DNA from: an uncultured Chloroflexota bacterium
Lineage (GTDB): Bacteria; Chloroflexota; Chloroflexia; Chloroflexales; Roseiflexaceae
NCBI GenBank assembly: GCA_903871975.1
Contig: CAIQIY010000619.1
Span: 1 to 25,014 of the forward strand
DNA: 25,014 nt
Direction: 5' to 3'
Made by a program: the position numbers and the translations under genes
Shown: piece after piece, positions 6,004 to 24,441 of the stretch
Layout of the letters: every line of letters starts with the position of its first letter
Position numbering within the stretch: position 1 is the stretch's first letter
The notes under the pieces: model-generated
The model's database searches: none
What the model was told of the DNA's origin: nothing
Seen by the model: only the letters and a program-made list of their open reading frames with translations

Positions 6004-6032
6004 GCCGGCGGTACACTGACAACCTGCAGCCG

Positions 6033-6195
6033 ATCGAGGCGACCCGACAGCCCGGATGCTAGGGCGGAATGGTGGAAGCTGGTGCAAGTCCAGCGCTGTG
6101 CCGCAACTGTGAGCGATGGTGACATGATAGTACCATCGTGAGCCAGGACGCCAGCCTCGGTCATGTGACGTACAACCTTCTCGAGCACGGGAGGT
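6033..6195 (+). ncRNA. Cobalamin riboswitch, compact (class II-like) with P13 expression platform
   Basis: P1 ATCGAGGC(6033-6040)/GCCTCGGT(6154-6161); GGAAGCTGG-TGCAAGT-CCAG P4 T-loop; GCCGCAACTGTGA core; single hairpin CGATGGT/ACCATCG; B12-box-like GAGCCAGGACGCCAGCC; P13 ACCTTCT/GGGAGGT covering an SD. It lies upstream of btuFCD-like genes. Confidence 0.9.
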
Positions 6196-21207: not shown

Positions 21208-21765
21208 ATGAGCGCTGCACCGAATCAACCTGTCGGCGACGGTGATGTGTATGGCGAGGATTTTCCGCAGCTCGCACAGGCCCAGAATGCCGGTTACGAC
21301 ATGGCGGTGATCAACGGTCACAAATATCCTTTGTCGGTGGTCGTCAATGTGCTGCTGGTGATCTATGAGATGCTGGCGGATCCGCACACACGGGCGATCC
21401 TGGTGTGGGCGATCGAGATCATCGAAGCGCGGGGCACGACACCCGTCGAACACGATCCGCGATTTGCCCAATATCGTGCGATATTGCGCAAAAATGGCCT
21501 GATCATCAGTAACCCCTCCGGTCATGGCGTGCAATTTGTCCCCGAGTTCCACGACATGATCCGGCTCATTGAGCGACAGGTTTCGCTCTACGATCGGCTC
21601 GTCGACAACCTGATCGCGCGGCAGTCGCATGACTTCCGCCTCCCGCTGCGCCTCTCGTGGTATGACTCGCGTACTGGAACCTACTCGGATATCGCCGACA
21701 AGGACGACTCGGAGTTCCTGATCTCCAGTAGTCTGGTACGGTTTGCCGAGAGTATGCGCTGGTAG
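21208..21765 (+). CDS. Hypothetical protein, 185 aa (possible winged-helix segment)
   Basis: Globular-looking composition and gene-like codon use; GAGGT/AGGA SD-like sequence before ATG 21208. No family recognised. Confidence 0.7.
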   Translation: MSAAPNQPVGDGDVYGEDFPQLAQAQNAGYDMAVINGHKYPLSVVVNVLLVIYEMLADPHTRAILVWAIEIIEARGTTPVEHDPRFAQYRAILRKNGLIISNPSGHGVQFVPEFHDMIRLIERQVSLYDRLVDNLIARQSHDFRLPLRLSWYDSRTGTYSDIADKDDSEFLISSSLVRFAESMRW

Positions 21766-22058
21766 TGCTCCGTGCGGCTGGGCTACGCTGCATGTGATCG
21801 GGCGACGCCACGAGCCGGCGCAGTCTGCCGTGTCGGCCCATGTGCTGGCTTTCCGTCCGCCGATCGACACCATGGATCCGCGTGTTGCCGATGCTGGACG
21901 CTGGGGTGAGCGAACGTCAGCGTAGCCTGACGCTCGGTCGTACAGCGTGTCCCCGCGCGCTCTGACTCGAACGACGGGCCATACCTGCCGGCCAGCGCTT
22001 GCCGATGATCTATCCATGCCGCCGTTGCATGTGTGGACACCCGTTGCAGCGACATCCA

Positions 22059-22067
22059 TGGTATAAC
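22059..22067 (+). promoter_or_regulatory. Possible extended -10 promoter (TGGTATAAC) for the tandem HD gene
   Basis: TGnTATAAC about 170 nt upstream of ATG 22234. Confidence 0.4.
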
Positions 22068-22233
22068 CGTTGTACCGGAACGGGCACAGGCAGTACTGGC
22101 ACGAATCGGTGTGCCAGGTCTCCAGCAGCGGGGTGCGTGCTGGCCGTTGGGCCGGGATCGACCACACATGGTTGTGCTGGTCGGCCGACGAGCGGTCCGG
22201 CCTGCTGCATCAATGTGTCACAGGAAGGTGACC

Positions 22234-23466
22234 ATGACAGACGACACATCCACGCCGGCCACACGCTACACCGATGCCCTGTGCTTTGCCGCCGAACGGC
22301 ATCGTTTCCAGCTGCGCAAAGGCTCTGCCATCCCATACATCACGCATCCGGTCGCGGTTGCCGAATTGCTGATGCAGCGTGGCTTTGGCGGCGACATCAT
22401 CGTCGCTGCGTTGTTGCACGATGTCGTCGAGGATTGTGACGTCACCCTGGATGAACTGGACACCCGCTTCGGTGCCGGCGTCGCCGAACTGGTCGGCCTG
22501 GTGAGCGAGCGCAAGCGCGATGATGATGGCAGCGCGCTCCCGTGGGAGCTGCGCAAGCACGAGCAGCTCGCGCACGTTCGTGGCGGCAGCCCGCTGGCAG
22601 TGGCCCTGAAGTGGGCTGACGCACTCCACAACGCACAGTCCATACGGCGCGGCCTCGAGCAGATCGGGGCTGATGTCTGGACGCGGTTCAAGGTCGGCCG
22701 CACGGCACAGGTCTGGTGGTACCTGTCGGTCTGCGATGTCGTGCGCGAAGCCGGTCGGGGCGATCTCGCCGGCGAACTCGAGCAAGAGGTCGCCGCAATC
22801 ATCTGGCAAACGTCCGGCCATGAAGCTGGACACATGTCGCCGATCGTGCCGGCAGGCGGGGGAGGCGACGGCTTTGCGCGGCGTTATGCCGATGCGCTGC
22901 AGTTCGCCGCAGAACAACACGCCATGCAGGTGCGCAAAGGCTCTGCCATCCCGTATATCACGCATCCGGTCGCAGTTGCCGAATTGCTGATGCAGCGTGG
23001 CTTCGGCGGCGACATCATCATCGCCGCGTTGCTGCACGATGTCGTCGAGGATTGTGCCGTCACCCTGGATGCCCTGAGCGCGCGCTTCGGCGCCGGCGTC
23101 GCCGAACTGGTCGGTGTGGTCACCGAACAGGAGCCGGATGATGTGCGCAGCGAGCGTCCGTGGCAGGATCGCAAACGCGACCGGCTCGCGAGCATTCGCG
23201 CCGGTGGACCAACTGCGGTGGCGTTGAAGTGGGCTGATGCGATGCATAATGCACAAGCTACACTGCGCGACAGCGAACAGCACGGATCCATGGTCTGGAC
23301 AAGATTCCAGGTGGGCCGCACATCGAAGATCTGGTGGTACCTCTCGATCGCCGACATCGTCCGCGATGCTGGCAGGCCCGACCTCGCCGGCGAACTCGAG
23401 CAAGAGGTCGGTGCGATCGTCTGGCAAGGCAGCAGACATGGCGCACCGCACGAGCCGCAACGCTGA
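22234..23466 (+). CDS. Protein of two tandem RelA/SpoT-type HD hydrolase domains (Mesh1/small alarmone hydrolase-like), 410 aa
   Basis: Each half has RKGSAIPYITHP, ALLHDVVED and ALKWADAxHNA. GGAAGG SD precedes ATG 22234. No synthetase domain. Confidence 0.9.
   Translation: MTDDTSTPATRYTDALCFAAERHRFQLRKGSAIPYITHPVAVAELLMQRGFGGDIIVAALLHDVVEDCDVTLDELDTRFGAGVAELVGLVSERKRDDDGSALPWELRKHEQLAHVRGGSPLAVALKWADALHNAQSIRRGLEQIGADVWTRFKVGRTAQVWWYLSVCDVVREAGRGDLAGELEQEVAAIIWQTSGHEAGHMSPIVPAGGGGDGFARRYADALQFAAEQHAMQVRKGSAIPYITHPVAVAELLMQRGFGGDIIIAALLHDVVEDCAVTLDALSARFGAGVAELVGVVTEQEPDDVRSERPWQDRKRDRLASIRAGGPTAVALKWADAMHNAQATLRDSEQHGSMVWTRFQVGRTSKIWWYLSIADIVRDAGRPDLAGELEQEVGAIVWQGSRHGAPHEPQR
22264..23427 (+). 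repeat. Intragenic tandem duplication, period 618 nt (about 22264-22809 and 22882-23427)
   Basis: Same 618-nt offset at both ends. Segments 22315-22452 and 22933-23070 differ at 8 of 138 nt by hand count. Confidence 0.93.
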
Positions 23467-24246: not shown

Positions 24247-24323
24247 TGGTCGGGGCGAGTGGATTCGAACCACCGACCTCAGCGACCCGAACGCTGCGCT
24301 CTACCAGGCTGAGCCACGCCCCG
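24247..24323 (-). tRNA. tRNA-Pro (anticodon CGG)
   Basis: Folds as CGGGGCG acceptor, GCTC/GAGC D arm, CAGCG-TTCGGGT-CGCTG anticodon arm, GGTTCGAATCC T loop, encoded CCA; 77 nt. Confidence 0.97.
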
Positions 24324-24355
24324 ATGCCGACCAACCGAACAGACTGACGGTACCT

Positions 24356-24441
24356 TGGTGCCGAAGGTGGGAGTCGAACCCACACGAGGTCGCCCTCAAC
24401 GGTTTTTGAGACCGTCGCGTCTGCCATTCCGCCACTTCGGC
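24356..24441 (-). tRNA. tRNA-Leu (anticodon CAA)
   Basis: GCCGAAG acceptor, ACGGT-CTCAAAA-ACCGT anticodon arm, long variable arm, GGTTCGACTCC T loop, encoded CCA; 86 nt. Confidence 0.97.

Follow-up and report, generated by a model that had tools for sequence, protein, structure and literature searches.

A tandem RelH-type small alarmone hydrolase, a probable covalent pseudo-homodimer, in one genus of uncultured freshwater Chloroflexota

We analyzed a 25,014-nucleotide stretch of DNA (the window; contig CAIQIY010000619.1 of GenBank assembly GCA_903871975.1) from an uncultured Chloroflexota bacterium of the family Roseiflexaceae. An open reading frame on its forward strand (22234..23466, stop codon included) encodes a protein of 410 aa, in which two complete RelH-type small alarmone hydrolase (SAH) domains, HD1 and HD2, follow each other in one chain. 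We consider it probable that this protein is a covalent pseudo-homodimer with two equivalent (p)ppGpp-hydrolyzing sites. In the common ancestor of a single genus of freshwater Chloroflexota, a whole single-domain RelH-like gene would have been duplicated in tandem, and the two encoded domains would most likely form an intramolecular pair. Repeated gene conversion would keep the N-terminal catalytic and interface part alike in both halves. Each domain is predicted to be an Mn2+-dependent 3'-pyrophosphohydrolase, which converts (p)ppGpp to GTP/GDP and pyrophosphate, and the protein probably serves as an orphan housekeeping hydrolase beside the long Rel enzyme rather than as an antitoxin.

Each half separately matched the Pfam HD_4 profile (PF13328), with 72.6 bits for HD1 and 69.1 bits for HD2 against a cut-off of 27.2. 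Both copies in the architecture search were thus above the cut-off. In each half, profile positions 1-123 (the first 120-123) of the NCBIfam model TIGR00691 spoT_relA were also covered. HD1 spans residues 9-193 (22258..22812; helices 8-193 in the AlphaFold2 (AF2) model) and HD2 residues 213-401 (22870..23436; AF2 helices 213-401). The two halves aligned without gaps over 192 aa with 71% identity (E 7e-101). Between them lies a Gly/Pro-rich linker of ~19 residues (residues 194-212, 22813..22869), which is predicted to be disordered, showing a predicted local distance difference test (pLDDT) value of 54-67 and no secondary structure in the AF2 model. No synthetase, TGS, or ACT domain was found in the 410 aa, and HD_4/HD were the sole Pfam or NCBIfam matches. 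RelH-type SAHs are normally single-domain proteins of ~180-220 aa, and the present protein lies outside this range. The original prediction, made from the letters of the window, had described two complete HD domains joined by a flexible linker, and the profile matches and the disorder of the linker bear this out. All strings that it quoted (the linker, the central segments, KWADALHN/KWADAMHN, RKGSAIPYITHP, and HDVVED) are present in the protein.

The domains are RelH-type and not Mesh1-type. By sequence against the Protein Data Bank (PDB), the closest entries to one half were RelH of Leptospira levettii (RelH_Ll, 7QOE; E 4.5e-27, 98 bits) and RelH of Corynebacterium glutamicum (RelH_Cg, 7QOC/7QOD; E 1.9e-25, 93 bits). 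Lmo0812 came next, followed by MESH1 (72-75 bits) and Drosophila Mesh1 (55 bits) and then by the long Rel enzymes. In the Foldseek comparison, the domains superposed on 7qoe/7qoc with template modelling (TM) scores by target of 0.86-0.89 and root-mean-square deviations (rmsd) of 1.6-1.9 Å over 183-192 columns, and the HMMER alignments to RelH reached chain residues 176-189. The RelH fold, with its extended alpha7 and C-terminal helices, was found; in Mesh1, by comparison, alpha7 is short and a loop takes the place of the RelH alpha8 helix (PMC9293644). Metazoan MESH1 and Drosophila Mesh1 (3NR1, 5VXA, 3NQW) share the HD_4 superfamily fold and the catalytic motifs but are more distant, with E values of 5e-20 to 9e-14 and TM scores by target of 0.76-0.82. 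As RelH ranks ahead of MESH1/Mesh1 both by sequence and by fold, the earlier label "Mesh1-like" was replaced. Compared with RelH_Cg and RelH_Ll, which are monomers of 190-200 aa working as homodimers, the domains show ~33-34% identity, the same fold, and the same HD motif residues, but two of them are carried on one chain.

All residues expected for catalysis were retained in both halves. In an analysis of 60 RelH-type sequences, in which each half was aligned separately with 57 single-domain relatives, ten columns were invariant (H23, R28, K29, P34, H38, H62, D63, E66, D67, and D129). HD1 keeps all ten together with the near-invariant N133, and their counterparts are all kept in HD2. The catalytic and motif residues are R28, K29, H38, H62, D63, E66, D67, D129, and N133 in HD1 and R234, K235, H244, H268, D269, E272, D273, D335, and N339 in HD2. 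The six HD motifs, as defined in PMC9293644 (including an HD5 Asp with Lys/Arg), are represented by R28/R234, H38/H244, H62-D63/H268-D269, E66-D67/E272-D273, D129/D335, and N133/N339. The earlier claim that both halves keep the catalytic motifs was therefore correct, and no family-invariant residue is lost. Because the metal-binding and catalytic residues are complete in both domains and the guanine-stacking Arg is retained as well, we infer that each is a hydrolase. Judged from these residues, both sites are likely to be active (p)ppGpp hydrolases, and our confidence in this is higher than in the pairing of the domains discussed below.

The fusion is present in sequences of independent origin. 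The source genome (G000) is a metagenome-assembled genome of 707 contigs and 85.5% completeness. G001, the only further genome of the genus (95% complete), encodes a stop-free two-domain orthologue with 61% identity over residues 9-409. A near copy of the G001 protein, also with two domains, was found among ENA metagenome proteins (P0003, 425 aa). P0003 carries a short repeat (ADAVALK / ADTVALK) before KWAD in its second domain (residues ~330-347), which is missing in G001 and stems either from a micro-duplication or from an error of assembly. An identical copy of the 410-aa protein (P0002) is present in a public protein collection. Two contigs from independent runs cross the linker in frame. 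The first, from DNA (X2, record 17), covers 22763-23408 with 1 mismatch, and the second, from an RNA library (X16, record 7), covers 22682-23099 with 14 substitutions and no gaps. In the X16 variant the frame stays open, and the protein changes only in the linker (G199A, M201T, and GGGGDG to GGGDGG) and at L280M. Such a contig indicates presence in an RNA library and is not by itself proof of transcription. An assembly artifact was ruled out by G001, P0003, and the linker-crossing contigs. The original prediction had named relatives or reads with two separate genes or a single copy as grounds for doubt; the second genome of the genus and the independent contigs show the fusion.

The architecture is limited to one genus. 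Among 1.84 billion scanned cluster representatives, no cluster with two RelH domains was found other than that of the protein itself. Single-domain orthologues were found in twenty other genomes of the family, with 46-54% identity, frames of ~190-290 aa, and other loci. The RelH-like SAHs of the sister genera (L008-L017, with L019 from a Chloroflexota metagenome-assembled genome) are orthologues by phylogeny and share with the tandem protein the ADA(L/I)HN variant of HD5 and the C-terminal helices, but they stand at other loci with neighbors different from those of the tandem gene. A contig scan with the single protein as query returned no relative, and with the alignment as query it returned only single-domain or long RelA/SpoT homologue (RSH) relatives.

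The six halves of G000, G001, and P0003 formed one clade (support 98/99) on a stem of 0.95 substitutions per site within the single-domain sequences of the family. Within this tandem clade, the halves clustered by genome and not by position. The nucleotide alignment of HD1 and HD2 is a mosaic, with 83-96% identity in columns 49-240 and 60-75% in the remainder. The synonymous divergence (dS) between the halves was 0.22 in columns 55-240 versus 0.93 downstream. None of 5000 codon permutations gave an equally similar 150-nt window (p < 2e-4). From the identity and dS values, the gene-conversion tract was placed at residues ~27-88 on the HD1 side (22312..22497) and at the counterpart 22930..23115 on the HD2 side. 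Within it lie the HD1 Arg loop, helices alpha2-alpha5, and the HD and ED motifs; the same region in RelH holds the catalytic core and the dimer interface (PMC9293644). For the N-terminal 83 columns, the halves clustered by genome, and the topology joining the HD1s was rejected by the approximately unbiased (AU) test (p 0.012). In the C-terminal 112 columns, the four lineages were nearly equidistant, and the topology by position was not rejected (AU p 0.11).

We favor one duplication and fusion in the ancestor of the genus, followed by gene conversion in each lineage, as the history that these sequences suggest. A single origin is favored because the two genomes share a few position-specific residues (T/A at RY[T/A], L/M in ADA[L/M]HN, and VAAI/VGAI), the locus, similar C-terminal tails, and homologous linkers of equal length with the pattern P..PA.G...G. 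The linker combines the former C-terminal tail of copy 1 with the N-terminal leader of copy 2, which loss of the stop codon of copy 1 would have joined into ~19 flexible residues.

Both halves are equally under purifying selection. Between G000 and G001, the ratio of nonsynonymous to synonymous divergence (dN/dS) was 0.35 for HD1, 0.36 for HD2, and 0.37 for the whole SAH, and the values for the flanking genes were 0.12 and 0.14. The dS values of the three genes were similar (0.75-0.84), and the tandem SAH protein evolves ~three times faster than its neighbors. Selection on the two halves is thus relaxed or diversifying in comparison with the neighboring genes, although neither half resembles a decaying copy. 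This faster evolution, together with the restriction to one genus, might point to a young, nearly neutral duplication that brought no functional gain and left one half free to decay. We hold this very unlikely, as the fusion was kept across a dS of ~0.8 with both halves intact and with dN/dS values of 0.35-0.36 in each, and no invariant residue was lost. The stretch was also retained in many metagenomes of freshwater, rivers, lakes, wetlands, and aquaculture, which come from at least 10 studies, and in five metatranscriptome libraries.

The pairing of the two domains was examined through structural models and the known RelH dimers. In solution, RelH_Cg and RelH_Ll associate as homodimers through a hydrophobic patch on alpha1-alpha3, and a designed mutant of the RelH interface was insoluble (PMC9293644). 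Dimer geometry has been proposed to regulate RelH activity, but the two solved RelH dimers differ in geometry, and SAH interfaces are diverse (PMC9293644). Since stand-alone RelH enzymes are obligate homodimers through alpha1-alpha3, the fusion would most simply be a covalent homodimer. The AF2 model of the full-length protein had a mean pLDDT of 90.7 (93-98 in HD1) and a predicted TM score (pTM) of 0.86. The G001 orthologue likewise gave a pTM of 0.86, and confidence was low only at the linker (~19-21 residues) and the termini. When HD1 and HD2 were predicted as two chains with deep alignments, the score of 0.27 lay below the mark of 0.32 and speaks neither for nor against the pairing. The pseudo-dimer of the original prediction stands as far as the single chain with two complete domains is concerned, and the pairing is plausible given the obligate RelH homodimers and the pTM value. 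On these models, we judge intramolecular pairing somewhat better than an even chance.

The diversity of the solved RelH dimers and the length and flexibility of the linker could also fit a protein in which the interfaces are used between chains, forming dimers of chains, tetramer-like assemblies, or open polymers. The fusion would then mainly raise the local concentration of active sites or the avidity. A pTM of 0.86 for both orthologues would be unexpected if the domain placement were uncertain, and a linker of ~19 residues suffices for intramolecular pairing. Open polymers are, moreover, usually selected against, and we regard association between chains as unlikely.

Several observations weigh against the covalent pseudo-homodimer with two equivalent sites. 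In the AF2 alignments only three rows span both domains, and the high pTM therefore reflects the prior of the model and not co-evolution. All single-domain rows were aligned by MAFFT to one half only, which made inter-domain co-evolution unusable. The position equivalent to the interface residue Y40 of RelH_Cg is acidic in both halves (E44/E250; D in G001), unlike in RelH_Cg and RelH_Ll. Relative to these two enzymes, three Trp are also added in each domain. They belong to ~15 clade-specific substitutions shared by both halves, which are common to the six halves and rare among 67 single-domain sequences (including A22Q/R, E53G, A127W, Y162W, R164L, P177D, and W191). Most of these positions lie on helices that contribute to the dimer contacts of one RelH structure or the other, and the classical dimer interface may have been remodelled. 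In both halves, the HD5 Asp is followed by Ala instead of the usual Lys/Arg (W for A/L before the Asp and A for K after it, compared with RelH_Cg and RelH_Ll). Ala at this position is the D:hydrophobic variant of HD5 (PMC9293644). The topology of the C-terminal columns leaves independent duplications in the two species not formally rejected, and at 85% completeness of G000 a small synthetase could have been missed.

The Ala after the HD5 Asp is common to the single-domain orthologues of the sister genera and is therefore a trait of the wider clade and not a result of the fusion. The change to KWAD, with W127 before the HD5 Asp, is specific to the tandem clade. The original prediction had noted an altered KLADRLHN motif, which holds for the tandem-specific Trp; the Ala is not particular to the fused protein.

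The prediction had further proposed that the two sites might act on different nucleotides. The strongly divergent central segments on which it drew correspond to the alpha5-alpha6 loop. A second difference is found three residues past the HD6 Asn, where HD1 has Ser (S136, 22639-22641) and HD2 has Ala (A342, 23257-23259). This is the sole difference between the halves next to the active site, at the position equivalent to T151 of RelSeq and S129 of RelH_Cg, which holds the HD1 Arg. These differences, and the threefold faster evolution relative to the neighbors, would suit a sub-functionalized pseudo-heterodimer, with the sites acting on different nucleotides ((p)ppGpp versus (p)ppApp, NADPH, or coenzyme A (CoA)) or with one site having an allosteric or product-sensing role. 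Natural fusions of RelH-type with Aph1-type ((p)ppApp hydrolase) domains make chains of dual specificity biologically plausible, and NADPH, CoA, and 3'-phosphoadenosine 5'-phosphosulfate are known substrates of MESH1-type enzymes. The divergent loop, however, is variable across the whole family (its consensus is mostly x), and the catalytic, metal-binding, and base-stacking residues are identical between the halves. The order of Ser and Ala is reversed in G001 and P0003, each protein keeping one of each, so that the difference is not tied to the domain position. The catalytic core was recently homogenized by gene conversion, dN/dS is equal in both halves, and position-specific shared substitutions are few (~5 versus ~14 genome-specific ones). 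Division of labor between the sites is thus weakly supported at best, and we consider it quite unlikely. The corresponding history, in which conversion is tolerated only in the shared catalytic core and the roles split after the fusion, for example into a catalytic (p)ppGpp site and a site adapted to a different 3'-phosphorylated nucleotide, is just as doubtful. If it were true, the protein would be a natural case of an obligate homodimeric signalling-nucleotide hydrolase gaining regulation by fusion.

Other chains with two HD_4 domains were found among the best 150 representatives. P0252, a public metagenome protein of 387 aa, is a double Mesh1-type protein whose halves are 50% identical (best PDB match 3NR1, E 3e-26). 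P0252 represents an independent origin of a double SAH. Four further public metagenome proteins (P0187, P0149, P0192, and P0091) combine an N-terminal RelH-type domain with a C-terminal Aph1-type domain and keep HD..ED in both. The second domain of these chains matched the (p)ppApp hydrolase of Bacteroides caccae (7SMG, E 1e-31 for P0187). These four are better candidates than the tandem RelH for one chain acting on two alarmones. All of these proteins have two RSH-type folds per chain, but they are of independent origin or heterotypic, while the present protein is a homotypic pair of RelH domains. The full 410-residue model was also aligned by Foldseek with two AlphaFold DB clusters, A0A1B6EX28 (412 aa, 24% identity) and A0A1B6M0H9 (341 aa, 18% identity), which are unnamed or labeled "HD domain-containing". 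The alignments extended over more than 420 columns at an rmsd of ~27, and both entries may represent additional two-HD_4 proteins whose domains are arranged differently.

The published classification of 11 SAH subfamilies includes no tandem form (PMC7229694), and the words tandem, duplicat- and "hydrolase domains" do not occur in that article. Among the titles and abstracts obtained for small alarmone hydrolase and tandem, none was about a tandem SAH. What sets the present protein apart is that it is a homotypic pair of RelH domains, retains both sites, is confined to one genus, and is homogenized by conversion. As tandem HD_4 chains of other types exist, the finding refines known biology and does not define a new system. 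Within the RelA/SpoT superfamily, SAHs are the branch that is understood least, and the single structural study of RelH enzymes holds that their activity is governed by the dimer form. A single-chain RelH dimer would make single-site mutants possible within one chain, which is impossible in a homodimer, and would allow the role of dimer geometry to be tested. The protein also documents how a homodimeric signalling enzyme became a tandem fusion in which gene conversion is still ongoing. Its source is an abundant uncultured freshwater Chloroflexota lineage, and the sequence is also found in metatranscriptome libraries.

A synthetase partner was sought with the RelA_SpoT profile (PF04607). No RelA_SpoT domain was present on the contig, in agreement with the original prediction that the window lacks a synthetase. 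In G000 (85% complete) and G001 (95% complete) only the long Rel was matched (on contig C544 in G000), and no small synthetase was detected. The antitoxins of type IV toxic small alarmone synthetase (toxSAS) systems (ATfaRel, PbcSpo subfamily; PMC7229694) are likewise stand-alone alarmone hydrolase domains. Unlike them, the tandem SAH has no adjacent synthetase, and its neighbors are a hypothetical gene and a GNAT acetyltransferase gene. The tandem SAH is therefore probably an orphan, with no sign of a toxSAS partner.

The synthetase profile matched the long Rel of G000 (C544, 1412-1882, minus strand) in two pieces, profile positions 1-34 and 35-111, which lie ~140 nt apart. The same split match was observed at G001:C170 and, in one other genus, at G010:C272. 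The long Rel of the genus scored ~91 bits against the RelA_SpoT profile versus ~145 bits in relatives. This pattern suggests an insertion of ~47 residues inside the synthetase domain of the long Rel, as read from the profile alignment.

The order of the hypothetical gene, the tandem SAH, and the GNAT gene is kept in G000 and G001. The upstream neighbor (21208-21765, plus strand) is a 185-aa open reading frame that is 85% identical in G001, with a dN/dS of 0.12; the 185-aa protein had no Pfam or NCBIfam match. The downstream GNAT acetyltransferase is 79% identical in G001. A functional link to these neighbors was rejected, as neither gene stands beside the single-domain orthologues of other genera.

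Ahead of the SAH start, the spacer that separates it from the upstream gene (21766-22233) measures 469 nt, compared with ~160 nt in G001, and parts of it are covered by RNA-library contigs. An Rfam search of the 469-nt spacer for a ppGpp/PRPP-type or other riboswitch gave nothing credible (best E 0.71), and the surroundings of the SAH gene showed neither a convincing sigma-70 promoter nor a convincing terminator. Direct reading of the sequence showed a Shine-Dalgarno-like GGAAGG at 22223..22228 (plus strand), 5 nt before the ATG. A longer GTG-started frame from 22033 would extend the protein only by an Arg-rich leader of non-coding appearance. An internal start at Met201 was rejected, as this residue is Thr in the strain variant and a good Shine-Dalgarno sequence is lacking there.

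Elsewhere in the window, a cobalamin riboswitch (RF00174) was detected at 6020-6173 on the plus strand (53 bits, E 9e-11). The genes for tRNA-Pro(CGG) and tRNA-Leu(CAA) lie at 24247-24441 on the minus strand, downstream of the GNAT gene.

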